A stretch of DNA of 64,000 nucleotides from a virus (taxonomy: Duplodnaviria; Caudoviricetes): the IMG/VR virus record IMGVR_UViG_3300032462_000002, positions 1-64,000 of that record; one strand, given 5' to 3'. Under the pieces are notes generated by a model, which was given only the letters and a program-made list of their open reading frames with translations, did not search any database and was not told the DNA's origin. This document shows positions 12,219 through 50,030 of this stretch, piece by piece (within the stretch, counting starts at the first letter, position 1; each line of letters opens with the position of its first letter). The position numbers and the translations under genes were made by a program.

Positions 12219-13268
12219 TTAACCGAGTAAATCCTTGACATAACTTGCATGAGTTCCGTGTGGCCAAGAATAGTCAAGTGGCCGTTGATTTTTTTGGATA
12301 TAATGATGCAAAACTGCTGGTCCTAATTTAATTAACATTTCATTCCAATCATTATATCCTGGTGGTGGGATTACGAATTTTAGTTTTTCATTTCCCTTGA
12401 CGGTTTCCACGGAAGAAATCATCGAAGTCATTTTCGTGGTGCCTTGTTTGCCAGCTTTGTCTCTATCCAGACACAAAACAATTTTGTAGTCTGTGAGCAT
12501 TAGAGCTTGTTTCTCGCTCATGTTCTTGCCGCCGCAAGCAGCAGCGTTCAAGTCGCAGAGTTTCAAGCTGATAGCGTTGAACTCTCCTTCGCACAGATAG
12601 ATGGTTTCGTCGGCACGGGGCCAATTCCCCGCCATAAATACGACATCTTCTTTGCCAACCCCAAGTTCCTTGGGTGGACCGAGATATTTGCACTTAGATT
12701 TACCGATATGCCGACCATTCCAATATACGAGTTTTTTGTTTCGGTCGTAATATGGAATGATGATTCTGGCTTTGTATCTGTCTTCAGTGCAGATATACAA
12801 ACCATCAATCGGAAGTTGGCGATTGACAAGATACTCTTCGGCCTTCTTTCGCCACCAATTATTGGTGCCAAGAGCCAAAATCAATTCACAACCTAAAGGC
12901 AATTCCAGATCAGGTTTGGGGACTATTGGTTCCTGTTCAACAGAATCACCAAACATCTCCTCAAATTGTCTTTCCAAGTCCCGAATGCTGGTGCGGCCAT
13001 CGAGCGTCGTCAGAGCGTCTTCTCGGTCGCAACTGTCAACGATTTGGACCAGCTTAACCAAGCTGCCTTTCTGGTCGGTCTTGAAGCAGTGGTATACGCC
13101 ACCCTTTCTTTTCTTTTTGCCACCCGTGGGCGAACACCAAAGGTGATAATCGTCGTCGCCTTTGTCGAATATACTGTTGATGCGTACTTCTTTACCTTTG
13201 ACGAGAATATTGTCCTCGCCAAAGCGGGCCTTTGCCCATTTCACAAATTTATTGAAGTCAACAGCCAT
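12219..13268 (-). CDS. DNA primase (T4 gp61/DnaG-like)
   Basis: YHCF Zn-binding region, RIIIPY..GR..KY, Toprim CEGEFNA and LDRD, DWNE. Confidence 0.85.
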   Translation of the reverse strand: MAVDFNKFVKWAKARFGEDNILVKGKEVRINSIFDKGDDDYHLWCSPTGGKKKRKGGVYHCFKTDQKGSLVKLVQIVDSCDREDALTTLDGRTSIRDLERQFEEMFGDSVEQEPIVPKPDLELPLGCELILALGTNNWWRKKAEEYLVNRQLPIDGLYICTEDRYKARIIIPYYDRNKKLVYWNGRHIGKSKCKYLGPPKELGVGKEDVVFMAGNWPRADETIYLCEGEFNAISLKLCDLNAAACGGKNMSEKQALMLTDYKIVLCLDRDKAGKQGTTKMTSMISSVETVKGNEKLKFVIPPPGYNDWNEMLIKLGPAVLHHYIQKNQRPLDYSWPHGTHASYVKDLLG

Positions 13269-13336
13269 ATTTCCCTCTAGTTCGACCGATCCATATACTT
13301 TACAATATACTCATCCTTACCTTTGGTGGAATCATT

Positions 13337-14119
13337 ATGAGCCAAGAACATTTGATTTGTGAACATATTTCTGTATCGAGAAAGCAGACCTGGAATGAGT
13401 GTCAGGCAAAATACAAATTCCGGTATCATCTCAAGGTTCCGGTTGAGGGACCAGTGCAGCCGTATTTTGTTTACGGCAAGCTAGTTCATAAGATAGCCGA
13501 AGTGTACGTCCAAGAACAAGGCCAACGTGCAATCGAAGATATTGCTCACGACTGTCTTCACGGGATTATCGAAGTCGAGAAGGGGCAAGGCCCACCAGTT
13601 CTGGAAGCGAGCTACAAAAAGAAATTACCAGAACACGTTCGGAATCTCAAACAATTAAGCGACCGTATTGGATTTGACGGACATCTGGAGTGGCAGTTCC
13701 ATTATGACCTTCAGCCGCCCGATCAACATTTCATCACGGGATTTATCGACAGACTGATTATCCGTGGCGACAAATATTTCATTTTGGATTACAAAACAAC
13801 GAAGAAAGGATTCTACCGAAAGAATACCAATACGATCCGCAACGATATTCAACTTCGCTGTTACGCACGGGTCGTACAAAAAGAATTCGGAGCCAAGGCT
13901 GAGAATATTCGGGCTGCGTTATATTACGTTGATGGCAATGGCGGAGATTTAATCGCCACCAAGTTCAGCCAGGAATCACTTGACGCAGCAGAAACAGAGA
14001 TGCACGACGCATTTAATGAAATCGTCGGCACTCATCCTGATGATGTGTATGGTCGTGTAGGCGACCAGTGCCGACGATGTGATTATCGAAAGATTTGTCC
14101 GTTCTATTCACTCACTTAA
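13337..14119 (+). CDS. PD-(D/E)XK exonuclease, Cas4/RecB-like
   Basis: GKLVH, GFIDRL..ILDYKT, QLRCY, C-terminal CxxCxxxxxC plus an N-terminal Cys. Confidence 0.85.
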   Translation: MSQEHLICEHISVSRKQTWNECQAKYKFRYHLKVPVEGPVQPYFVYGKLVHKIAEVYVQEQGQRAIEDIAHDCLHGIIEVEKGQGPPVLEASYKKKLPEHVRNLKQLSDRIGFDGHLEWQFHYDLQPPDQHFITGFIDRLIIRGDKYFILDYKTTKKGFYRKNTNTIRNDIQLRCYARVVQKEFGAKAENIRAALYYVDGNGGDLIATKFSQESLDAAETEMHDAFNEIVGTHPDDVYGRVGDQCRRCDYRKICPFYSLT

Positions 14120-14761
14120 ATGAATGATTAAATCATTCAGATATTTGAAAAATCGAACATCAGTTTTACTACTGTAAACGACTTTCTTCAAGTATCCCGA
14201 TCCGTAAGGTGGCTCATCATTTTCTGGCATATTTTGTAAAATTATACACATGGGTGCATTTACACTCATGCTAATATGTCCTATACCACTGGCGCAACCA
14301 ACAAATAATTTACAAGTGGATAACACTTCAATGATGTGAGACAACGGCTTGTGATTCCCCAAATTAACTGGAATGAGTCCAATAGAATGAATGTACGAAA
14401 TGAATTCATTAACTTCATTCATTGAGGGATTCTTGTGCCAGAAAGATGACCGTCCATCAAATTGATATGCAACGATTTTACTATCTGTATCTCTCCATAC
14501 GCTTTTTGTAGGAAGGTACTTTGTCAAAAAAGCCTTGCGATAATCACAAGGAATGATTTTCCTTGTTTTATCAAACTCAAGGCATCCTGTTGTGTTAAAA
14601 AAAGAAACCAATTCTTGAAGATGGCGTTCATCAAAATCACAATTTACAAAAATTGGTCTATTCTTTTCTTCAGATTCTCTGAGCAAACAAGAGATAGCGG
14701 CCCATCTATCTCCTAATCCAAATTGGATATAACGAGCAGGAATTTTATCTATTTTTAGCAT
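14108..14761 (-). CDS. glycosyltransferase, GT9-like
   Basis: GLGD at the N-terminus; LFVGCASGIGHI. Confidence 0.55.
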   Translation of the reverse strand: MLKIDKIPARYIQFGLGDRWAAISCLLRESEEKNRPIFVNCDFDERHLQELVSFFNTTGCLEFDKTRKIIPCDYRKAFLTKYLPTKSVWRDTDSKIVAYQFDGRSSFWHKNPSMNEVNEFISYIHSIGLIPVNLGNHKPLSHIIEVLSTCKLFVGCASGIGHISMSVNAPMCIILQNMPENDEPPYGSGYLKKVVYSSKTDVRFFKYLNDLIIHLSE

Positions 14762-14771
14762 CACGCCTCGT

Positions 14772-15671
14772 TTAACGACCACCCGGAAGCAGGACATATT
14801 CCGGTGTGTATGTGCCTTGAGGACCACTGCGATCTTTAACCGGAATCTGACGTGCTGCGGCACCACCCGGCTTCTGGCTTAACAAGAACTCATATCCACC
14901 TTGTTGATTCCAATATTTGTGGATAGCAGATAAAGGAGTAAAATATCCTTTACCGCTTCCGTCACGATATTGAGTTCCCCAACAAGTTGCGATATAATAA
15001 CCATCATCATCCATCAGCCCACCGCCAGAACGTCCTGGGCGTGGGCTGTTTTGGTTTGTGATTAAATCACCACCGCCAAGCCCAAGCATTTCAATGTCGT
15101 AGTGCGCAACCTCATTGGCACCATCACACCCCAAAGAGTGGGCGTGACGACCAGCTTTATACTCATAATTCACAGGAGCAATAGGGAAATAGTCAGGTTG
15201 CCAATCTGGGGTAAAAATCACAAGTGATGTATCCTGACCCTGGATGTAACTATAGAATACTACATTGGCATTGTAACTCTTGGGAGCATCCAACTTCTTG
15301 TCGTTATGATACCAAGCGATGACTTTGCAGGTCATATTTCTACGCTTGCCTTCTTCTGCGGACATGGTTCCTTGATTCCACATATGTCCACAGGATGCGA
15401 CGTAAGCAAGATTTTTAGCTGCATCGTAATAAACGATAGTTCCAGAACCAGAACCGCCACCAACACTGATCTTAACAGATACAGCGAGAAACTTACGGAA
15501 CTCTGGACCACGTTGTTCGTTGGGAGCCATGCCCGCAAAACCAGCCGGGCGACGCTCCATAATCGGCATATTGTCTAGCGCATCGTATGTGTACGCAGAA
15601 GGGGACTCAGCGGTGGCAACAGAAGCCAGAAAGCTGACCAAAAAGACAAAAACATAAGATAATTTGAACAT
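14772..15671 (-). CDS. exported trypsin-like serine protease
   Basis: Signal peptide; GSGTIV, SCGH, DTSL, GRSGGGL catalytic motifs. Confidence 0.85.
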   Translation of the reverse strand: MFKLSYVFVFLVSFLASVATAESPSAYTYDALDNMPIMERRPAGFAGMAPNEQRGPEFRKFLAVSVKISVGGGSGSGTIVYYDAAKNLAYVASCGHMWNQGTMSAEEGKRRNMTCKVIAWYHNDKKLDAPKSYNANVVFYSYIQGQDTSLVIFTPDWQPDYFPIAPVNYEYKAGRHAHSLGCDGANEVAHYDIEMLGLGGGDLITNQNSPRPGRSGGGLMDDDGYYIATCWGTQYRDGSGKGYFTPLSAIHKYWNQQGGYEFLLSQKPGGAAARQIPVKDRSGPQGTYTPEYVLLPGGR

Positions 15672-40094: not shown

Positions 40095-41531
40095 ATGAAC
40101 GCAAATTCTCGATTTTTGAACGAAGCTAAGGAGCTAGAATCTCGTTGGGGCAAGACCGGACTCCTCGAAGGTATTCAGGACCGTTACGTTCGCTCTGCCA
40201 CAGCAGTTCTACTCGAAAACCAGAGACTCATGAATGAAGTCTCGACCGACACTGGCGACATCGCACAGTTCAAGCGCATCAGCATTCCGCTGGTACGTCG
40301 TATTTACCCACAGTTGATCGCCAACAAGATTGTTAGCGTTCAACCATTGCTAGGCCCAACAGGTCTGGTGTATTACCTACGCTTCCGTTACAGCAGCAAC
40401 AAGGGTGGAACCCGTGGTGCTTCTAACAACGGTGGTTTCCCAGGTGATGACGCCAACTCGTTGATGCAGACCGCTGACGGTACTGCCAACCTGGACATTT
40501 TCTACACCCACCAGTTCATTCAGAACGAAGTAACTTCGACTGATTCTGGTACTGACGCTTCTGCTGTATTCACTCCTTTGGAGCATACACCAGTTTTGGC
40601 CGGTACTGTAACTGGTACGATTTTTGATGGCAGCACTGCTGTTCAGACATTCATCGTATCGTCCGGTGGTAGCTTCACCTTCACTGACATTGGCGCTCCT
40701 AGCGTTAAGGTCACAGCAGGTAGCTTGAACAATAACACTGGCGAACTCGCCATGACCTGGAACTCGGCTCCTGGCGCTAACCACGCTGTCATCAGCTATG
40801 AGTACAACATGGAGTGCCAGCAAGACCTCCCAGAAATCAACCTCGTGATCGAGTCGGAAGAAATTGCCGCCAAGACCCGTAAGTTGAAGGCTGTTTGGTC
40901 ATACGAAGCACAGCAAGACCTCCGCAGCCAGCACAATCTGGATGCAGAAGCCGAACTGACCGCTGTATTGGCTCAGGAAATTAACCTGGAAATAGATCGT
41001 GAAGTTTTGACCGACCTGCGTAACAACGCTGGTACTGTCACAGCTTGGGACTTCAATACTGCTCTTGGTGAAACCATCAAGGAAAAGTATGAATCTCTGT
41101 ATGTTAAGGTTGTTGAAGTTTCTAACGTCATCCACCGTAAGACCCTCCGTGGTGGTGCTAACTGGCTCGTAACTAGCCCTGAAGTTGCCTCGATCTTCGA
41201 GACAGCAACAGCAGGCTTCGCACCAGCACCTAGCGAAACATTTACTAGCAGCCTGGGCATCCAGTATGTTGGTACAGTGAACAATAGGTGGCGTCTGTAC
41301 AAAGACCCTCTGTTCCCATCCAACCAGATTTTGATGGGTTACAAGGGCGATAGCTACATGGATAGCGGTTACTTCTACTGCCCATACGTTCCGCTGACAC
41401 AGACACCTGTGGTCCTCGACCCAGAATCGTTCTGTCCTCGTAAGGGAATTTTGACGAGATATGGAAAAAAATTATTGCGTGAGGGTGCTAAATTCTACGC
41501 ACGCATGTCGATTGCGAATTTCGTGATCTAG
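40095..41531 (+). CDS. major capsid protein (T4 gp23-like)
   Basis: LLENQ, VRR..P.LIA..VQP, AKTRKLKA.WS.EAQQDL, EINLEIDRE, YCPYVPL, TRYG. Confidence 0.95.
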   Translation: MNANSRFLNEAKELESRWGKTGLLEGIQDRYVRSATAVLLENQRLMNEVSTDTGDIAQFKRISIPLVRRIYPQLIANKIVSVQPLLGPTGLVYYLRFRYSSNKGGTRGASNNGGFPGDDANSLMQTADGTANLDIFYTHQFIQNEVTSTDSGTDASAVFTPLEHTPVLAGTVTGTIFDGSTAVQTFIVSSGGSFTFTDIGAPSVKVTAGSLNNNTGELAMTWNSAPGANHAVISYEYNMECQQDLPEINLVIESEEIAAKTRKLKAVWSYEAQQDLRSQHNLDAEAELTAVLAQEINLEIDREVLTDLRNNAGTVTAWDFNTALGETIKEKYESLYVKVVEVSNVIHRKTLRGGANWLVTSPEVASIFETATAGFAPAPSETFTSSLGIQYVGTVNNRWRLYKDPLFPSNQILMGYKGDSYMDSGYFYCPYVPLTQTPVVLDPESFCPRKGILTRYGKKLLREGAKFYARMSIANFVI

Positions 41532-41563: not shown

Positions 41564-41598
41564 AAGAAACCTACCGACACTATGTCGGTAGGTTTCTT
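41564..41598. terminator. bidirectional terminator
   Basis: aagaaacctaccgaca-cta-tgtcggtaggtttctt. Confidence 0.85.
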
Positions 41599-42775
41599 AT
41601 TGGTTTTTACAAACGTAGCTGCGAAGAAGTGCTTCTTTCGTGTCCACGTTTAGCGACTTGAGGTAAACTTCGTCCCACACCAGGAACACCCCGCCCTCAT
41701 CCCTCGCAAGTTCCTTGCCTCGATTTTCCTTCGCTATATTGATCTCGTCTGTCCTCTTAAAACCCGGCTTCACTTCGACAAAGTAAAGTTTTTCGTCACC
41801 AATGTATTTGACTAGAAAATCTAGCACATATCTATGGGTTTTTCCCAGGTAGACATAATCAATCCCGAACGGCTCGAAATCATACCACTCGACTGATTGA
41901 TTTTCGCTTAGGTGGATGTGAGCGATCAATTCCAGATGCGATCTGAAATAAGGGTTCGTTTTCCTGCATTTGCCTGCCGGATGAGAAATCCATCCTGTTA
42001 TGTGTCCTTGATTCCATCGTCCTCCAGCCCACTTTCCCGACGTAATTAAGTCGATCATCGTTTTGCTTTGCTTCTGATTCCACTCTTCTGGCCTTGTAAT
42101 GCCTTTTGCCCAAGGATTTGCGTAGCTTTCAGCGAGCCATGTTGTGCAGTTCTGGCGTAGATAATCTTTCATTTCTGGTAGTTGGTTGTAGTGTTCAACT
42201 CCATATTTCTCCAGAGTGGTGATTGCTCCTTTAACTCGGACTTCAGGCAAGCTCAAAGGATTATCTACTCCATACCGTTCTTGACAAGTTTGTCGCATTT
42301 TCTCCTGGATTTTTTCAGATTGAAGAGGAAAGTCTACGCCATATTTTTCTTGCATAGCTTCATTAAGTCGCCGTATGCCTTCATCGGTTTTCATGATATG
42401 GTCGGCCCCATATCGCTTCACAGAAGTTTCCCGTCGTTTGTTGACAATTTTCTGCGTAGATTCCTCAGTACCGAACATCTTTTCAACCCGTTCAGCGATC
42501 TTTTCCGGTGTATTGATCGGCATGGCAGTGCCATATTTTGCGATATTGGTTTTCTCAATTTTATCTCGAACCTCTTTGCGATTAGCGGGGTTATTCGCTG
42601 CCATTTGACATGAACGGCAAATATGCTTGCCGCCATGTGCATCAGCATTCTTTTGAGCAACGCTGTATATTGGCGTAGACTCCGTTCCGCACAATTTGAA
42701 CCCGCCGTTACAATCGTACTTGATCCGCACCCGTTGTCCAGGTAGTAGATTCGCAGGAATCTTTTCGATGTACAT
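41597..42775 (-). CDS. putative free-standing homing endonuclease (KYG repeats plus TnsA_N-like PD-(D/E)XK domain)
   Basis: Repeated (E/K)(K/R)YG(V/A)D blocks; FRSHLE..FEP..Y..RYVLDFLV..VEVKP. Confidence 0.7.
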   Translation of the reverse strand: MYIEKIPANLLPGQRVRIKYDCNGGFKLCGTESTPIYSVAQKNADAHGGKHICRSCQMAANNPANRKEVRDKIEKTNIAKYGTAMPINTPEKIAERVEKMFGTEESTQKIVNKRRETSVKRYGADHIMKTDEGIRRLNEAMQEKYGVDFPLQSEKIQEKMRQTCQERYGVDNPLSLPEVRVKGAITTLEKYGVEHYNQLPEMKDYLRQNCTTWLAESYANPWAKGITRPEEWNQKQSKTMIDLITSGKWAGGRWNQGHITGWISHPAGKCRKTNPYFRSHLELIAHIHLSENQSVEWYDFEPFGIDYVYLGKTHRYVLDFLVKYIGDEKLYFVEVKPGFKRTDEINIAKENRGKELARDEGGVFLVWDEVYLKSLNVDTKEALLRSYVCKNQ

Positions 42776-42819
42776 ATTTGCTCCTTGTACGGGTCAAAAA
42801 AGTTTTCAAAAATAAAATA

Positions 42820-42852
42820 AAAACCCGTAGTCGTTTCCAACTACGGGTTTTT
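42820..42852 (-). terminator. terminator closing the helicase/repeat cassette
   Basis: aaaacccgtagt-cgtttcca-actacgggtttt. Confidence 0.8.
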
Positions 42853-42874
42853 CGTTGCATCGACCTAGTCGAGA

Positions 42875-43039
42875 TCAGTTGGTTTTCTTAAACCAATCAG
42901 GACGCATTTTGCGAATCTCCGCATCAAACTCAGGATCATATCCTTGACTGTTGAATACAGCTTTTGAGAGCGGTCGTGGCTCGCCATTACGAGCCATTTC
43001 CATAAGTTGTTGCTTCTTCGCCTTTGCTTCGTCACTCAT
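42875..43039 (-). CDS. 54-aa single-repeat protein (absent from the ORF track)
   Basis: MSDEAKAKKQQLMEMARNGEPRPLSKAVFNSQGYDPEFDAEIRKMRPDWFKKTN. Confidence 0.65.
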   Translation of the reverse strand: MSDEAKAKKQQLMEMARNGEPRPLSKAVFNSQGYDPEFDAEIRKMRPDWFKKTN

Positions 43040-43104
43040 CGCTACATTATCCAAATCAGATAATTAAGTAACCACTACGCATCATACCAAAAGATTATTG
43101 AGTG

Positions 43105-44436
43105 TCAACTCCTGAACCAATCAGACCGCAGTTTTCGAATTTCTTTGTCGAAGTCTGGGTCGTAAGAACCACCTTGATTAGTATAATGAGTTAAAACCTT
43201 TCCTAATTCTCCCGTCTTTTGACTGGGTCTTAGTTCACCATTCTTTGCCATGTCCAGAAGTTGTTGTTTCTTCTGGTCAGCAATATCAGATGTTAATACA
43301 AACCAATCAGGTCTTAAATTTCTGATTTCCTTATCAAATTCTGGATTATAACAGCCATTTTTTAGACTTGTATAAGAAGACAACATGCCTCCTAATTCAT
43401 GTTTTTTATTATTTGGTCTTGGTTCACCATTTTTAGCCATTTCCAATAGTTGTTGTTTAGCAATATTAGATGTTGAGATAAACCAATCAGGTCTGAGATT
43501 GCGAATCTCTGCGGCAAATTTAGGATCGTAACATTTTGATACAGTACAAATGTAATTATTAAACACCGATCCCAATTTAGTTTTTCTCTTTGGTTTTGGC
43601 TCACAGTTTCTCGCCATTTCCAGAAGTTGTTGTTTCTTCTCGCTTGCAACATCGAACTGAGATATAAACCAATCAGGTCTAAGTTCACGGACTTCCTTGT
43701 CAAATTCTGGATTATAACAGCCATTTTTTGGATTAGTATAAGAAGACAACGTGCTTCCTAATTCATGTTTTTTATCATTTGGTCTTGGTTCACCGTTTCT
43801 CGCCATTTCCAGAAGTTGTTGTTTAGCAATATTAGATGTTGAGATAAACCAATCAGGTCTAAGCCTACGAATTTCTGCATTAAATTCAGGATCAGATCTC
43901 ATGTAATGATTAAACGCAATTCCTAATTCATGTTTTTTATCATTTGGTCTTGGTTCACCATTCTTTGCCATTTCCAGAAGTTGTTGTTTTTTATCGCTTG
44001 CAACATCGAACTGAGATATAAACCAATCAGGTCTGAGATTGCGAATCTCTGTGGAAAAATTAGAATCGTAACATGGGTTTTTTGGATTAGTATAAATTCT
44101 CAAAAAAATTCCCAAGTTATGCGTCCGTACTTTTGGTATTGGATGTTCTTTACGAGCCATTTCCAAAAGTCGCTGTTTCTTCTGTACGGAATTATCAAAC
44201 CAATCAGGTCTAAGTTCACGGATTTCTGCGTCAAACACATCATCATAACAGCCACCTTTAAGGCGTATATAGTTGCGAAAAACCGATCCCAATTTAGTTT
44301 TTTTCTTTGGTTTTGGCTCTCCGTTTCTCGCCATTTCCAGAAGTTGTTGTTTATTCTGGTCAGATTGAGTTAAGCAGAACTTCTCCCAGCCGTCAATTGA
44401 TTCTAAGAGTTGTAATTGCCATGTTTTGAGTGTCAT
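43105..44436 (-). CDS. repeat-array protein B (7 x ~60-aa HA-like repeats)
   Basis: KQQLLEMA..P..LG..Y..F..EIR.LRPDWF x7; ATGA overlap with A. Confidence 0.85.
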   Translation of the reverse strand: MTLKTWQLQLLESIDGWEKFCLTQSDQNKQQLLEMARNGEPKPKKKTKLGSVFRNYIRLKGGCYDDVFDAEIRELRPDWFDNSVQKKQRLLEMARKEHPIPKVRTHNLGIFLRIYTNPKNPCYDSNFSTEIRNLRPDWFISQFDVASDKKQQLLEMAKNGEPRPNDKKHELGIAFNHYMRSDPEFNAEIRRLRPDWFISTSNIAKQQLLEMARNGEPRPNDKKHELGSTLSSYTNPKNGCYNPEFDKEVRELRPDWFISQFDVASEKKQQLLEMARNCEPKPKRKTKLGSVFNNYICTVSKCYDPKFAAEIRNLRPDWFISTSNIAKQQLLEMAKNGEPRPNNKKHELGGMLSSYTSLKNGCYNPEFDKEIRNLRPDWFVLTSDIADQKKQQLLDMAKNGELRPSQKTGELGKVLTHYTNQGGSYDPDFDKEIRKLRSDWFRS

Positions 44437-45794
44437 TTTATTTTTCTGAACCAATCAGACCGCAGTTTTCGAATTTTTTTGTCGAAGTCTGGGTCGTAAG
44501 ATTTATGTTTTAGTCTTGTGTAACAACCCAAAACCGATCCCAGTTTATGTGTTTTTTGATTTGGTCTAGGCTCGCCGTTCCTTGCTATCTCCAGAAGTTG
44601 TTGTTTCTTCTGGTCAACAATATCAGATTGAGTTTTTTTATTTCTGAACCAATCAGGCATAAGTTCACGAATTTTTTTGTCGAAATCTGGATCGTAAGAA
44701 CTGTCTTTTGGTTTTGTGTAATAAACCAAAGCCGATGCCAATTTATGTGATTTCCTATTTGGTCTTGGTTTGCCACGACGTGCCATATCGATAAGTTGTT
44801 TTTTTTTATGATTTACGGCATAACGAAACCAGTCGGGTCTAAGGCTGCGAATTTCCTTATCAAAATTTTTGTCAAAGGTATTGCCTACGGTTGTATATTT
44901 GCTTAAACAACTACCAATGTGTTCTGAAATTTTTGGTCTTAGTTTTCCTCGTCGTGCCATCTCTAAGAGTTGTTTCTTCTTTTGGTTGGCACGCTCAGAT
45001 AGAGACACAAACCAATCAGACCGCAGTTTTCGAATTTCTTTGTCGAAGTCTAGGTCGTAACAATTAGATTTTGTAGTGTATAAAGTCAATGAATGGCCCA
45101 ACTCATGTACTTTTTGAATAGGTCTTGGTTCACCACGACGTGCCATCTCCAAAAGTTGTTGTTTCTTCTGATCGGCAATATCAGATAAAGATGAAAACCA
45201 GTCAGGTACGATTTTGCGGATTACCTTGTCAAACTCTGGATCGTAGCAATCTCGCTTGTGTTCTGTGTAAATACGCAAGACATTTCCTAGACCATCTCGT
45301 TTAGGTTTTTTCTCTCCATTCCTTGCCATCTCCAAAAGTTGTTGTTTCTTCTGATCGGAAATATTAGATCGAGACACGAACCAATCAGGTCTGATCTTAC
45401 GAATTTTTTTATCAAAGTCTTGGTCGTAGCTGCCGCTTTTTTGACTCGTATAGCAAGTCAAACCAGATCCCAATTTATGTGATTTCTTATTTGGTCTTGG
45501 TTTGCCACTATATGCCATCTCTAAGAGTTGTTGTTTCCTTTTCTTGGCACACATGAACCAGCGGGGTATGCGTTCTCTGATTTGCTTGTTGAATTCTGAA
45601 TCATAAGAACTGCTGTTGTGTCTCGTGTATTCATTCAAAACATACCCCAGAGGATGCTTTCCCGGAATGGGTTTTGTCTCGCCATTCTTTGCCATCTCCA
45701 TAAGTTTCTGTTTCTTCTGACTTGATTTAGATAAACAGAACTCCTTCCAGCCACTTTTGGAATCCAAAAGTTGTATTTGCCAAATACTAAGCAT
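44433..45794 (-). CDS. repeat-array protein A (7 x ~60-aa HA-like repeats)
   Basis: Same repeat x7; ATG overlaps the helicase stop. Confidence 0.85.
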   Translation of the reverse strand: MLSIWQIQLLDSKSGWKEFCLSKSSQKKQKLMEMAKNGETKPIPGKHPLGYVLNEYTRHNSSSYDSEFNKQIRERIPRWFMCAKKRKQQLLEMAYSGKPRPNKKSHKLGSGLTCYTSQKSGSYDQDFDKKIRKIRPDWFVSRSNISDQKKQQLLEMARNGEKKPKRDGLGNVLRIYTEHKRDCYDPEFDKVIRKIVPDWFSSLSDIADQKKQQLLEMARRGEPRPIQKVHELGHSLTLYTTKSNCYDLDFDKEIRKLRSDWFVSLSERANQKKKQLLEMARRGKLRPKISEHIGSCLSKYTTVGNTFDKNFDKEIRSLRPDWFRYAVNHKKKQLIDMARRGKPRPNRKSHKLASALVYYTKPKDSSYDPDFDKKIRELMPDWFRNKKTQSDIVDQKKQQLLEIARNGEPRPNQKTHKLGSVLGCYTRLKHKSYDPDFDKKIRKLRSDWFRKIK

Positions 45795-47679
45795 TCTCTG
45801 TCTGCCTTTTATAATGTGCTCGTTGAACTGCCATAAATCGGTACAGCGAGCTATCTTTGTCAAGATTTTCAAAGCCAATTCGACTTGCTTCTTCAACTTT
45901 TTCTTTCCAATCTGTTCCTAAGAACTGTTGGAGTCTTTGAAGGTCATTTGTATTGGCTCGACCTTCAAATGGAGAATGCGGAGCTATATGAGTTCTGACG
46001 ACTACGTCCCAACCATGTTCACGCACAAAATCAACAATCATTCCATCAAGTCGTAGATCAGGGTTATTTGGATTTTGTCGTCTTAGGAGTTCTTTACGGA
46101 GTCGTTCTTTGAGGACTTCATAAGAGACATTTTCCAAGATATAATCATCAAATGATTCGATGATATCTTCGATTACTTCGTTGATGGCATCTGGAGTGCG
46201 AAGGTCTTCTGGGATTGCAAGTACAGCTTGGAGCATTTCTTCGATTACATCGTTACGTTTAGAGCCGTAAACATCTTCAAGGCTGACGTATTTAACTGGT
46301 TCAGTGTCTTCTTCGTCGTCATCAAATGGCAATGTGGGCATGAGGATGGGATAGAACATATCATCGAGCATTGACGAGACGATAACTGCGTTAAACATAT
46401 CCGAGATGTTTTGGCGGATTTTATCTGATGGTGAGTCCCATTGTGCGAAGTATTCGATGTAATTGACCATTTTGACATCTTGTTTGTCTTTATGGTCTCG
46501 AAGACTGCGGCCCAATTTTTGGATGGCCAAGTGTACCGAACGATCAAAACTAGCGTTGTGGATTCGTGAGCATGGAGGCCAATCTGTCCCTTCTCGACCT
46601 ATCATGCAGGTGACAGCAACTTGAAAGTCATGGTCATCTGACATGAGTCGATCTTTATCTCGTTTTTGTCGATCTGGTCGTACTAGATCGAGAACCAATT
46701 TTGGTCCATAGATTTGTTCTAGTTTTTCTACTAATGTCTTAACCCATTCGGTTTTATTGGTGGTCTTAAAAAAGCTATTGCCATCTGAGGGAACAATAAT
46801 GAGGGCAGGTTCGTTTGATTCTTCTTTGACAGAATCAATGATCTGATTCATGAGTTGAGTGCTATTTTCATAGCAAACATAATTTTGTCGTAATTCACGC
46901 AGTCCAAGGACATTCCAGTGTTCCATGAATGGCACTCTGAAAATCTCGAAATCACTAAGATAATCGGTGTCAATAATGGCTTGTTTATTGCCACGATAGA
47001 AGAGTGCGGTCATTACATGAAGAAATCCCTCTTGATCCAAGAGGTATTTGCAAAATTCACCCAATCTATTCATTTCATAATCATCTTCACTTACGCCTGA
47101 AACATGTTGTATTTCATCGATGCGAAACGATGTATTTTTGATCGCACGTTTCTTTTCAGAATTGCTCATATTCTGAAAGGCTTTTATGAAGGCGGCGTAT
47201 GTAGCAACGCAAGTGACTCCTCCGAGGACATCTTGTTTTCTGAAGGAATCTAGGCTTTTTTTAGTTCGTTTTTCCAGAAGAAATTTACGAACACTTTCGA
47301 CTGAGCCATCATTTTCTTCACAGCAATTGGTGGTTATTTCCCAATGATAAATTTTGCCATCTATATTCAACATGGGGTGTTTTTTCTCAGTGAACCCATA
47401 TCCGATATTGAGTTGTGGCACAATAAAGATTTGTTTTCGTTCATAGTCAGTTTGGATAATTTCACGAGCTGCGTCGAAGATTTGCATTAAACTTTTACCA
47501 CTCCCTGTTGGTGCAACGGTGAGGGTGCGAGTTTTGCCGTCAAAGCTCTTAAATCTACGTATTTGATAATCTCGTCCAGCATACCCAAGCTCTCTTGGTT
47601 GAGATTGTTTTATCGCAGGCAGTTTGGCTTGATGTGGTTTCCAATTTGGATCTCTAAAACTGAAATCGGCAGGCTTCAT
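45787..47679 (-). CDS. SF2 (DExH, ResIII-like) helicase/translocase
   Basis: APTGSGKS, IDEIQH, MTA, IGREGTDWP, QKLGRSLR. Confidence 0.85.
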   Translation of the reverse strand: MKPADFSFRDPNWKPHQAKLPAIKQSQPRELGYAGRDYQIRRFKSFDGKTRTLTVAPTGSGKSLMQIFDAAREIIQTDYERKQIFIVPQLNIGYGFTEKKHPMLNIDGKIYHWEITTNCCEENDGSVESVRKFLLEKRTKKSLDSFRKQDVLGGVTCVATYAAFIKAFQNMSNSEKKRAIKNTSFRIDEIQHVSGVSEDDYEMNRLGEFCKYLLDQEGFLHVMTALFYRGNKQAIIDTDYLSDFEIFRVPFMEHWNVLGLRELRQNYVCYENSTQLMNQIIDSVKEESNEPALIIVPSDGNSFFKTTNKTEWVKTLVEKLEQIYGPKLVLDLVRPDRQKRDKDRLMSDDHDFQVAVTCMIGREGTDWPPCSRIHNASFDRSVHLAIQKLGRSLRDHKDKQDVKMVNYIEYFAQWDSPSDKIRQNISDMFNAVIVSSMLDDMFYPILMPTLPFDDDEEDTEPVKYVSLEDVYGSKRNDVIEEMLQAVLAIPEDLRTPDAINEVIEDIIESFDDYILENVSYEVLKERLRKELLRRQNPNNPDLRLDGMIVDFVREHGWDVVVRTHIAPHSPFEGRANTNDLQRLQQFLGTDWKEKVEEASRIGFENLDKDSSLYRFMAVQRAHYKRQTENA

Positions 47680-47680
47680 A

Positions 47681-48316
47681 TCATGACCTTATAAAGAGGA
47701 AGGTTCCCATGTCGGTTCTGGACGCTTTGTAGCAATAAAGCTGTTCTGAAACAGTCCAATCTGTTGGATTTCTCAGATGTTTTACTACTGATTCGACCAA
47801 AATTTTTGGATCAAATCTTTTACTGGAATGCCCATCTGACAACATCAGATTTGCCGCCACAACAGTTTTTGGTGGGCAGAGATTCATGGTTTTAGCGAGA
47901 TATTTGTGGCAACTCGTTTTGAGCACAGTTTTTGTGTAATCGAAATACACAAGTGCTGGATTGAAAATCTCGAAATTATCTTCGATTGTTTCGAGCCAAT
48001 CTCCGCACAGCCAGTTGGCTTCGGGATGGTTTTTTTTATTGAATTCAATTACACCTTCACCTTTGAGGTCGTTGTCGATTCCAAAAAATTGATTTTTGGT
48101 GATAAATCCAGCTTGGACCAACTGAACGATTTCTGATCCTTCTGTATCGGGTTGTTTATTGCAGAAGGTCCAGTAAGATTTTTCCATTGGAATTGAATGG
48201 ATGCCGGTAATTTTTCTATAAGCATTGATCAATTCTTGTCTTGCCTTTATCTTGGCAGAGTTCTTATAATATTCTGGCTGTTCGGCGAAATGATGTTTGT
48301 CGAATGGATTTTGCAT
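47681..48316 (-). CDS. putative SAM-methyltransferase-fold protein
   Basis: FFGID, LCGDW and LVYFD resemble class I motifs II-IV; the glycine-rich motif I is degenerate. Confidence 0.45.
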   Translation of the reverse strand: MQNPFDKHHFAEQPEYYKNSAKIKARQELINAYRKITGIHSIPMEKSYWTFCNKQPDTEGSEIVQLVQAGFITKNQFFGIDNDLKGEGVIEFNKKNHPEANWLCGDWLETIEDNFEIFNPALVYFDYTKTVLKTSCHKYLAKTMNLCPPKTVVAANLMLSDGHSSKRFDPKILVESVVKHLRNPTDWTVSEQLYCYKASRTDMGTFLFIRS

Positions 48317-48376
48317 GTGTGATTTATAGCACAAATCACACAATTGTTCAAGGACAAAATAACTGATGAAGATTGA

Positions 48377-48565
48377 CACTGTCACAAGCCTTTAGATGGC
48401 AAAGCATCCGAGGATGTAATGAGCAATCAGATCAATGAAAATTTGTTTCCACCAAAGTTCTTAAACTGGCCTGTTCATTTGCATCACGATCATAAGACTG
48501 GCATGACAGTAGGTGCAGTTCATTCCCACTGCAACGCTGTATTATGGCAATATCATAATGAGTAA
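48377..48565 (+). pseudogene. 5'-truncated endonuclease VII-like gene
   Basis: In-frame TGA, then HCHKPLDG...PVHLHHDHKTGMTVGAVHSHCNAVLWQYHNE. Confidence 0.6.
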
Positions 48566-48567
48566 AT

Positions 48568-48948
48568 ATGAATTACATCATCGTTCAAGTAGATCAAGAT
48601 TATGGTCAAGTAGTAGGCGTCAGGTACATTGAAAGTTTTGAAGACAAAGAATCTGCGAATGCGTTTATTTTAGGAAAGAATGAACAGCGGATCGCAGAAT
48701 GGAAAAATAGATTAGAATACATTGAACAATGGGTCGATGCTATTGAACTTCCTGAGACAGATTATCATGGCTGGATTAAATATCTCGAACAATACCATCC
48801 ATTTGGTGTCATGTATGTGACTCCCGATGACTTCAAAGAAAATTTGAAGAGTTATTTAACAACACACTCGGTGAAATTGAATGAATATGAGCCGCCTCCA
48901 GTAGATTTAGAATGCAACGGTTTTCATATAGTGAAGATGAGTCGGTAG
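48568..48948 (+). CDS. hypothetical protein
   Basis: ORF. Confidence 0.55.
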   Translation: MNYIIVQVDQDYGQVVGVRYIESFEDKESANAFILGKNEQRIAEWKNRLEYIEQWVDAIELPETDYHGWIKYLEQYHPFGVMYVTPDDFKENLKSYLTTHSVKLNEYEPPPVDLECNGFHIVKMSR

Positions 48949-49178
48949 GATTTCAAAGGCTTTTGCAGCCTTTGAAACTCGCTTGGCGTGCAACTTCTGA
49001 AACATTTCAATCCACAAAGGCTTTTGTCCCCGTATCCCGCAGCCTTTGAAACCGGCTGGCGTCGATAGACAAATGCCCGGATCTTGTATGAGTGATTCTC
49101 GTTATGTAATGATATTTGATAGTTAAATCGTAAATATCTAAAGGAAAGATATTCGATAAAACAAACATAGAGGCGAAG

Positions 49179-50030
49179 ATGAAATTCAGAAAATGGTTTG
49201 AAGTTGTGGAGTTAATGAAGCCGAAAGGTGCAAGAAAGAGCAACATTGTAAGGGATGCTGGCACGAATACAGCCAGAGGTGCGATTCAGTACAAATGGAA
49301 AACACAACTGGGAAGCGAAGTAAAGTTATTGTTTACTCCTGAAGGCAATGACGAATACACGGTTGTTTTTTATGTAAACAATACATTGTATGACGATGCT
49401 GCATCTAACACAGAAAATGGTAGAGACCCAGAGATTTTGTCTGGTATTTTTTACTTATTAAAGTCCAAGTCGGAAGTAATTGGAGCAAAGACTTTATCGT
49501 TTAGGGCACATCAATCTCCTGGCGACACTAAAATTGTGCGAAGTCTAAACATAGATTTGTATAAGCAACAAGCATTGACAGACATTTTCAATTTCTCAAA
49601 AGAATCGTCTACAGTTGTTCCTAATGTTGTACCTCCGAGCGAGAGATCGCTGTCGCTTATGAAAAAAATCAACAGGCCGATTCTAACAGTATACGATTTT
49701 GAAAAGGATCGTTGGTTGAATTTTGCAAAACAAGTAAAATCAGCAATTGAACAAAACGAATCGATTTACAATTATGTGAATCAGTTAAAAACTGGAGTAG
49801 GGGTTGGCGACTTCCGTACTTTGAATTTTGATATCAACAAATTGATTTATTCTTTAAGCAATTATCAAAACGCATTTATATCAAATACAGAGCAGGGCTG
49901 GAGCAAAACCAAAAACAGACGTGCTGTGATATATGAAAAGCTGTTGAATCGTCATATGTCTAATGACTGGTCTATTAGTGTTGTTCGTGGCGACAATTTT
50001 TTGTTGACTAAAAAACATGATGTGGTTTAA
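49179..50030 (+). CDS. hypothetical protein with CTS-like N-terminus
   Basis: MKFRKWFEVVE; GAGG SD. Confidence 0.65.
   Translation: MKFRKWFEVVELMKPKGARKSNIVRDAGTNTARGAIQYKWKTQLGSEVKLLFTPEGNDEYTVVFYVNNTLYDDAASNTENGRDPEILSGIFYLLKSKSEVIGAKTLSFRAHQSPGDTKIVRSLNIDLYKQQALTDIFNFSKESSTVVPNVVPPSERSLSLMKKINRPILTVYDFEKDRWLNFAKQVKSAIEQNESIYNYVNQLKTGVGVGDFRTLNFDINKLIYSLSNYQNAFISNTEQGWSKTKNRRAVIYEKLLNRHMSNDWSISVVRGDNFLLTKKHDVV

Follow-up and report, generated by a model that had tools for sequence, protein, structure and literature searches.

The window is a stretch of 64,000 nucleotides at the start of a 106,870-base viral record (IMGVR_UViG_3300032462_000002, Caudoviricetes; CheckV completeness 22%). On its minus strand, positions 42875-48316 contain a compact set of five genes, which encode a protein with a predicted methyltransferase (MTase) fold, a superfamily 2 (SF2) helicase, two arrays of tandem repeats designated A and B, and a mini-protein with a single repeat. 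The favoured reading, whose chances are judged to be about even, is that large uncultured T4-like phages carry this locus as an accessory cassette, in which swappable arrays derived from the helicase-associated (HA) domain (PF03457) target the helicase via an HA domain split between genes. The new element would be this joint: by sequence pattern, the helicase appears to end in the first HA helices and each array to start with the missing helix or helices. HA-type accessory domains of helicases are already known, and the distinctive features of the cassette are the stand-alone arrays in variable number, the split-domain connector and the conserved MTase-fold partner. A search of the literature, made without supplements, found no description of the phage repeat family, the three-gene set or a split HA connector. 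The features of the cassette are as follows.

47681-48316, minus strand: MTase-like gene, 211 aa; the start is backed by 35 homologues of about 204-256 aa
45787-47679, minus strand: SF2 helicase of the ResIII type, 630 aa; identified by ResIII, phrog_16 and motifs I, II and VI
45790-45912, minus strand: C-terminal part of the helicase, about 41 aa, read as HA helices 1-2; pattern W..kvEEa..iGfenl...s.LYrFm.vQRahY
44433-45794, minus strand: array A, 453 aa; 20-aa leader MLSIWQIQLLDSKSGWKEF followed by seven three-helix repeats of about 60 aa
43105-44436, minus strand: array B, 443 aa; leader MTLKTWQLQLLESIDGWEKF followed by seven repeats
42875-43039 (ATG start, 54 aa) or 42875-43054 (TTG start, 59 aa), minus strand: mini open reading frame (ORF) with one repeat
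43081-43108, minus strand: sigma70-like promoter match ahead of the mini ORF, TTGACA-16-TATGAT with TG, 11/12
42819-42852, minus strand: intrinsic-terminator-like hairpin closing the cassette, 15-bp stem with a T-rich tail

The sequence-only reading of this DNA had described five co-oriented genes ending at a terminator with the first four tightly coupled, and this layout was indeed found, with all five genes on the minus strand and the hairpin beginning 23 nt downstream of the mini ORF. The stop of the MTase-like gene and the start of the helicase are 1 nt apart, the helicase stop and the array A ATG overlap by 8 nt (ATGCTTAG), the array A stop and the array B start share an ATGA overlap, and a gap of about 50-65 nt separates array B from the mini ORF. 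By gene coordinates, three 8-nt overlaps are present in the related locus L009 and one in L010, and the junction strings ATGCTTAA occur in L013 and L016, their contexts coming from a pattern scan for start/stop overlaps; an overlap scan across all loci was too crude, and claims on junctions are limited to those read directly. The promoter ahead of the mini ORF is a consensus match only; the region holds 13 sigma70-like sites, as compared to an expectation of 15.8 in shuffled sequence. The G+C content across 42001-50000 is 0.378-0.402 as compared to 0.42-0.48 in the flanks, which fits an acquired accessory island. The combination of an MTase-fold protein, an SF2 ATPase and several basic arrays with tight coupling, an own terminator, low G+C content and endonuclease genes on both sides points to an accessory cassette.

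The evidence for a split HA domain comes from the ends of the helicases and the beginnings of the arrays. The window helicase ends with ...DWKEKVEEASRIGFENLDKDSSLYRFMAVQRAHYKRQTENA, which follows the pattern of HA helices 1-2, while the starts of arrays A and B (MLSIWQIQLLDSKSGWKEF and MTLKTWQLQLLESIDGWEKF) follow that of HA helix 3. The same split after helix 2 is found in L009/L013 (three arrays), L010/L016 (four arrays), L011 and L022. The L031 helicase stops after helix 1 (NWDENFEKWKAFQNL), helices 2-3 being found at the start of the L031 arrays, and a split after helix 1 is also present in the cultured jumbo phage Tunturi_5, with helix 1 in the gp100 tail and helices 2-3 at the start of gp99 and gp98. 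Judged from these patterns, the split point differs between lineages yet stays complementary. Two of the L031 array leaders are matched weakly by PF03457 (24.2 and 19.9 bits), and the same model matches four more array leaders at profile positions 25-64, namely P0061 (31.6 bits), P0057 (29.3 bits), P0097 (27.1 bits) and P0065 (26.4 bits), with P0057 and P0061 exceeding its cut-off. In fused relatives, the helicase runs straight into the repeats. A hidden Markov model (HMM) of the helicase tail matches 29/45 split helicases and 0/21 fused proteins, being built from 28 of its 29 matches, and an HMM of the W-type leader matches 33/201 stand-alone arrays and again 0/21 fused proteins. Both HA halves are kept across helicases that are only 30-67% identical, at two split points. 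Every array of a locus bears the same leader, including the later arrays lying away from the helicase, and a single helicase would hence have the arrays as alternative partners. In L010/L016 all four arrays lie upstream of the helicase, so that in L010 read-through cannot join array and helicase. The split HA domain would then serve as a non-covalent connector that replaces the covalent link of the fused proteins.

An alternative is that the split HA is a scar of gene fission, with the arrays acting alone, for instance as DNA-binding regulators or phage nucleoid proteins, and the helicase and MTase-like protein forming a separate two-gene unit. Such a unit exists in L036 (7872-10626), where a helicase of the same family (35% identity, basic C-terminal tail) is directly followed by the MTase-like gene and no repeat arrays are present within 8 kb; the pair may thus be the older core. 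Arrays lacking a helicase within 10 kb are in turn found in L024, L027 and L028, and the leader of array B, which has no evident partner, was modelled at lower confidence than the array as a whole, with a predicted local distance difference test (pLDDT) value of 70-76. Against a scar stand the retention of both complementary halves over such sequence divergence and at two split points, the leader kept by later arrays that lie away from the helicase, and the fused relatives, which tie arrays physically to this very helicase. Gene fission is regarded as an unlikely explanation.

Several results weigh against the favoured reading of a helicase targeted by arrays through a split HA domain. The Pfam HA model misses every repeat of the window, the window leaders and the window helicase tail, and hhalign gave no significant similarity between the helicase tail and the repeat profile (probability 0.2-2.3%). 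Some half of the stand-alone arrays start with leaders of other kinds, such as MLHK..SSY.EIAK.FPEL, which are not recognisably HA; L015, L019 and L029 are not classifiable for split type; and 5/18 array loci have no helicase within 10 kb. The half-HA HMM was made from 28 of the 29 helicases it matches, and lineage, not function, could explain why the HA halves are missing from fused forms. Complex prediction with alignments for helicase residues 480-630 and array B residues 1-86 gave scores of 0.13 and 0.00 against a mark of 0.32, which neither supports docking nor speaks against it. A match of the solved HA domain 2kta to the repeats (Z 4.1) is tied with many unrelated three-helix proteins, and the MTase-fold protein, having no glycine-rich S-adenosylmethionine (SAM) loop, may not methylate.

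Seven repeats of about 60 aa in each array had been counted from the sequence alone, and this count was confirmed, with totals of 7 + 7 + 1 units. Each of the 15 units matches the joint profile at E 3.9e-36 to 2.9e-20, far beyond chance, and a profile search of the 106,870-base record found no further copies. The unit of the mini-protein, described earlier as a one-repeat protein, is a single one (profile E 2.9e-20) and is not complete, as the whole LGxxLxxYT helix (helix 2) and the leader are missing; a similar mini ORF follows the array of L017. An AlphaFold2 (AF2) model of array B has a pLDDT of 89.6 and a predicted template modelling score (pTM) of 0.37, with three helices per repeat and an inter-repeat arrangement that is not fixed. 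The whole array model gave no Foldseek match in the PDB at E<=0.001, only generic helical repeats with a template modelling (TM) score of about 0.1, and the 15-repeat profile against PDB sequences reached a best E of 0.22.

The repeats appear to derive from the HA domain, a kinship which had been suggested earlier from the layout and which holds as real but remote. PF03457 gave no match at E<=0.1 on the arrays, the helicase or the mini-protein (gathering score 28.4 bits), none at E<=10 on the 15 single repeats and none at E<=10 in a six-frame search of the 106,870-base record. In L018, one polypeptide carries the helicase, three repeats and two canonical HA domains (63.9 bits), and the repeats and the canonical HA units line up motif for motif. 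A canonical HA alignment of 8 rows (2 full domains and 6 partial leaders) was compared by hhalign with 1160 repeats and aligned over 50 columns in register (P 2.8e-4, probability 41.3%). The solved HA domain 2kta, which is a domain of Bacteroides vulgatus A6KY75, stands at rank 7 of 48,161 chains (Z 4.1, rmsd 6.6, 72/74 residues aligned). Given fusion to the same helicase, co-occurrence in L018 and the hhalign result, the repeats are called HA-derived, though outside PF03457 as Pfam defines it. Both kinds are three-helix units of about 60 aa that occur in several copies with SF2 helicases and have a common layout of helix 1, a G..P loop, an [LI]G helix 2 and a helix 3 ending in P.W[FLW]. They differ in that the window repeats have L and YT in place of the conserved W and QR of HA helix 2, with variable residues between, and in that arrays of the window type are often separate genes of a metagenomic, phage-borne family missed by the Pfam model.

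This repeat family is metagenomic, mostly phage-borne and unrecognised by Pfam. With the repeat profile, 1120 cluster representatives (50% identity) are matched at E<=1e-3, 787 at 1e-10 and 452 at 1e-30, and both the best 150 representatives and 215 fetched members contain 3-13 repeats per protein. More than 350 aa precede the first repeat in 29/215 fetched members, and an SF2 helicase domain was found in 5/5 long-N-terminal members scanned, with ResIII above its cut-off in P0123, P0124, P0125 and P0130 and P0122 having only a sub-threshold DEAD match. The fused homologue P0124 is 48% identical to the window helicase, and repeats are carried by 21/66 proteins of the helicase family. The repeat family was located on 18 viral loci on contigs of 28-572 kb, and 185,579 species genomes yielded a single repeat locus (L031), which lies in a metagenome-assembled genome on a contig of 18.7 kb.

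Linkage of arrays and helicase, which the sequence-only reading had taken from this one locus, is well supported across relatives, as the helicase is present at 13 of the 18 viral array loci (12 by the family HMM and L025 by Pfam). The MTase-like gene is present at 10 and all three at 9 of them, and L031 contains the helicase, the MTase-like gene and arrays together. The cassettes of L013 and L014, which lie on two contigs, are nearly identical. No further neighbour gene is common to the loci, save among close relatives. The number of array genes per locus ranges from 1 to about 10 (L021), with 1-8 repeats per array at these loci. L021 (20.2 kb) encodes two fused helicase-array proteins of 1365 and 1144 aa, measured stop to stop, and eight array genes; no MTase-like gene is within reach there, and about 200 residues after the repeats in the proteins of 1316-1365 aa have no Pfam family. 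In L022, L028 and L029 only, a protein of 245-279 aa with a DPPY-type DNA methyltransferase motif lies at most 10 kb from the arrays. In Tunturi_5, a Tunturiibacter phage, gp100, gp99 and gp98 are all annotated as 'DNA helicase', and gp100 belongs to the family of the window helicase (HMM E 1e-104, 30% identity); the repeats of this phage are of a different type of about 50 aa, missed by the window repeat profile, and a search of the phage genome with the MTase-like profile, run without a positive control, found nothing.

The assignment of the second gene to SF2 helicases was borne out by a ResIII match of 27.1 bits against a cut-off of 22.5, with DEAD and Helicase_C falling under their Pfam cut-offs, and by a match to phrog_16 'DNA helicase' (E 1.7e-13). 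Motifs I (APTGSGKS), II (DEIQH) and VI (QKLGRSLR) are present at positions that are invariant in 28 homologues, the first H of DExHH, present in most relatives, being replaced by Q in the window protein. PADLOC returned only a weak Cas3 match (E 9e-5), NCBIfam nothing meaningful, and the comparison with PDB sequences a best E of 0.57. The Atlas clusters closest to the helicase consist of bacterial DEAD/ResIII helicases with 600-700 aa, one cluster being auto-named as a restriction-modification (R-M) helicase. The earlier remark that no nuclease domain is visible agrees with the Pfam and PADLOC searches, which found none in the five genes, residues 430-590 of the helicase being covered by sequence libraries only.

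The 211-aa protein has no match in Pfam, PHROG, PADLOC or NCBIfam, and its description as MTase-like is supported at the level of the fold. The AF2 model, made with 35 homologues, has a pLDDT of 90.2 and a pTM of 0.87, and Foldseek against the PDB returned at least 500 matches at E<=1e-3 and probability 1.00, with 3cgg_A on top (E 2.4e-6, TM about 0.5) and nearly all of the matches listed being methyltransferases. VIA-align gave Z values of 14.4-12.7 with 181 residues aligned at best, its tied rows including many rRNA and tRNA base MTases and also protein and small-molecule MTases, and an Atlas model of a homologue agrees with the same fold (TM 0.54-0.63). On the strength of these models, the protein is assigned to the class I SAM-methyltransferase fold, its motif I being non-canonical. 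Among the 28 columns invariant in the 35 homologues are D81, which ends strand 2 (77-81), and D126, which lies in strand 4 (120-130) and is taken as its end; their positions suggest the roles usual for acidic residues at these places of the fold. The alignment of the 35 homologues contains neither a GxGxG motif I nor a (D/N)PP(Y/F) motif. The loop after the strand at 47-51 instead reads CNKQPxxEGxE, with Q55 and E62 invariant and C52, P56 and G60 present in at least 90% of sequences.

The tied structural neighbours of this protein leave room for an RNA-directed system, in which a DExH-type RNA helicase, an RNA methyltransferase and PUF-like RNA-binding arrays would act on host or phage RNA. 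RlmI-like 3c0k, Trm5, RsmD, RlmO and TrmN are among these neighbours (Z 14.4-12.9), and the variable residues of the arrays lie on helix 2, as they do in the layout generally known for PUF repeats. The structural rows are tied with protein and small-molecule MTases included, ResIII-type SF2 enzymes are typically DNA translocases, and the nearest helicase clusters are the bacterial DEAD/ResIII groups with the auto-named R-M helicase. The HA domain is moreover stated to bind DNA in PMC12191111, where PLD nuclease-HA fusions are also described. On balance an RNA-directed system is considered decidedly improbable, and DNA is the more plausible target within the favoured reading of arrays that direct the helicase.

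Variation between repeats was ranked on 1160 non-identical repeats of the family over 59 columns. All 14 residue pairs that the sequence-only reading had listed at LG-xx-[LF]-xx-Y in arrays A and B are correct, and its claim that variation concentrates there stands for three of the four positions: x1 (3.85 bits), x3 (3.79 bits) and x4 (3.39 bits) rank 2nd, 3rd and 6th, while x2 ranks 16th, with Ala in 42%. The flanking loops are equally variable, the other columns among the top six being one in the pre-helix-2 loop (3.86 bits), one in the post-helix loop (3.59 bits) and a second pre-helix column (3.54 bits). By helical periodicity, L, [LF] and Y are expected to face the core and x1, x3 and x4 to point outward. 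S, N, R, K and Q are frequent at the variable positions, and K7, R20 and R52 are kept as Lys/Arg. Array A has a pI of 10.0 and a net charge of +49, array B a pI of 9.25, and the helicase is acidic (pI 5.46). Basic arrays, an acidic helicase, polar variable residues and basic conserved ones fit a nucleic-acid-binding face. Binding of nucleic acid by the arrays is suggested by these pI values of 9.3-10.0 and by the kinship to HA.

Like TALE, PUF and PPR proteins, the arrays consist of helical repeats in tandem, whose scaffold is fixed and whose exposed helix residues vary. A strong form of the sequence-only reading would be that the arrays are hypervariable and follow a comparable code, each repeat recognising one base or a short step through LG-xx-[LF]-xx-Y. 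The high rank and polar character of x1, x3 and x4, the conserved K7, R20 and R52, and a repeat number that varies from 1 to 13 agree with such a scheme. The four-residue signatures tell against it, as 986 distinct ones occur in 1160 repeats with the commonest seen 7 times, and so does mutual information of 0.32-0.38, barely above the shuffle baseline of 0.22. Loops vary as much as the helix, a pTM of 0.37 indicates no confident superhelix, each repeat being a self-contained three-helix domain, and at strain level the term hypervariable does not hold: array A differs at 1/453 and array B at 3/443 residues from cluster mates of >90% identity, with none of the differences at an x position. A small code in the manner of TALE, zinc-finger or PPR proteins is hence not supported and is held to be very unlikely, the least probable of the explanations weighed here.

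In the favoured reading of a targeted helicase, the helicase and the small MTase-fold protein would form a core, to which 1 to about 10 basic repeat-array genes are added. The HA pieces of helicase and array would reassemble non-covalently, and arrays A or B would dock alternately on the one helicase as exchangeable targeting subunits. The arrays would bind nucleic acid, most likely DNA, via the conserved basic scaffold and the variable face made of helix 2 and the flanking loops, and the ATP-driven helicase with its MTase-fold partner would then act at the chosen sites. DNA modification, anti-restriction and regulation are candidate roles of the cassette, and the phage-versus-phage restriction or counter-defence proposed from the sequence alone stays a conjecture. 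HA as an added DNA-binding or targeting module has a counterpart in TniQ-HA fusions of Tn7-like elements, as described in 10.1101/2025.07.27.667033, and in the PLD nuclease-HA fusions. Those are covalent fusions of canonical HA in cells, whereas the window type has long divergent arrays in phages and a split-domain joint.

The layout also resembles Type I restriction-modification (HsdM, HsdR, HsdS) in that one tight operon combines an MTase-fold protein and an SF2 ATPase with several separate, exchangeable proteins that are candidates for specificity subunits. The likeness is one of layout only: the cassette has no detected nuclease domain, its MTase-fold protein lacks (D/N)PP(Y/F) and GxGxG, and its arrays are HA-like repeats, not HsdS target-recognition domains. 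A stronger version, a nuclease-free Type-I-like machine, in which swappable arrays each read an extended DNA site by helix 2 and loops, plug into one translocase via the split HA and direct an MTase or remodelling activity, with recombination at the leader or junction exchanging specificities, is thought improbable, to about the same degree as gene fission. Phage P1 DarB, a very large anti-restriction protein that is not known to carry HA arrays, likewise pairs a methyltransferase-type module with a DExH-type helicase.

If the favoured reading is true, these repeats would make up a large family of proteins, with 1120 or more clusters at 50% identity, unseen by Pfam and tied to the poorly understood HA domain, and would provide a natural set of modular basic three-helix repeats for mapping nucleic-acid specificity. 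Splitting a small domain across genes would be one means of coupling a motor protein to interchangeable targeting subunits. The cassette, an accessory set found repeatedly in contigs of uncultured phages as long as about 570 kb, would gain a first functional handle.

Comparison of the window with L017 suggests that array bodies are exchanged at the conserved leader. Positions 1-126 of L017 are identical to 44360-44485 of the window (126/126 nt), which covers the end of array A and the leader of array B; behind the shared leader L017 has five unrelated repeats, and its capsid gene is 75% identical to that of the window. L017 begins at a contig end, and the shared 126 nt could be a recombination hot spot or an assembly artefact. 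Four DNA sequencing runs contain 0.97 of the sampled words, one of them perhaps being the source of the record. In contigs of these runs, the helicase and MTase-like genes lie under long clean contigs, while the arrays fragment into short contigs or are uncovered in low-depth runs. In run X2, across 43100-45400, minor contigs (depth 40.9 as compared to about 400) join non-adjacent repeats and skip 584, 1074 or 2015 nt; they may be repeat-number variants or an assembly artefact. No RNA run turned up in the sequencing-run search, and no expression data were found for the cassette.

The phage setting is given by a T4-type major capsid protein encoded at 40095-41531 (Pfam Gp23, E 3.3e-87), whose gene has a 595-kb uncultured phage as its sole deposited nucleotide-level relative (72.9% identity). 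The cassette itself had no megablast match in deposited phages, and tblastn of array B and of the MTase-like protein against 50,697 deposited phage records was likewise negative. Head genes adjoin the cassette in some phages. Next to the cassette of L009, at 12824-14287 on the minus strand, a 487-aa protein has five tandem units of about 60 aa with a zinc-ribbon-like CxCG...CxxCG motif (MPYICECGN..S.I.F.NF..G.RC..CG). In L010, three small ORFs of 137, 112 and 130 aa at 13786-15336 on the plus strand share the pattern ...F.F.D......C.SG.I......I.L.WN........SYEY, which is also found inside the window capsid protein, and are possibly stand-alone versions of a domain inserted into the capsid protein.

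The gene at 41597-42775 on the minus strand, flanked by the capsid gene and the cassette, specifies a 392-aa protein in which DUF7487 repeats score 83.6 bits and a TnsA-like endonuclease N domain 31.5 bits. The protein also matches PHROG homing endonucleases and has a homologue near the L009 cassette at 14302-15462. On the other side, a 48-aa ORF on the plus strand (48419-48565), divergent from the cassette, resembles recombination endonuclease VII only weakly, scoring 18.1 bits with the cut-off at 23.6, and may be the remnant of an HNH-type mobile endonuclease.

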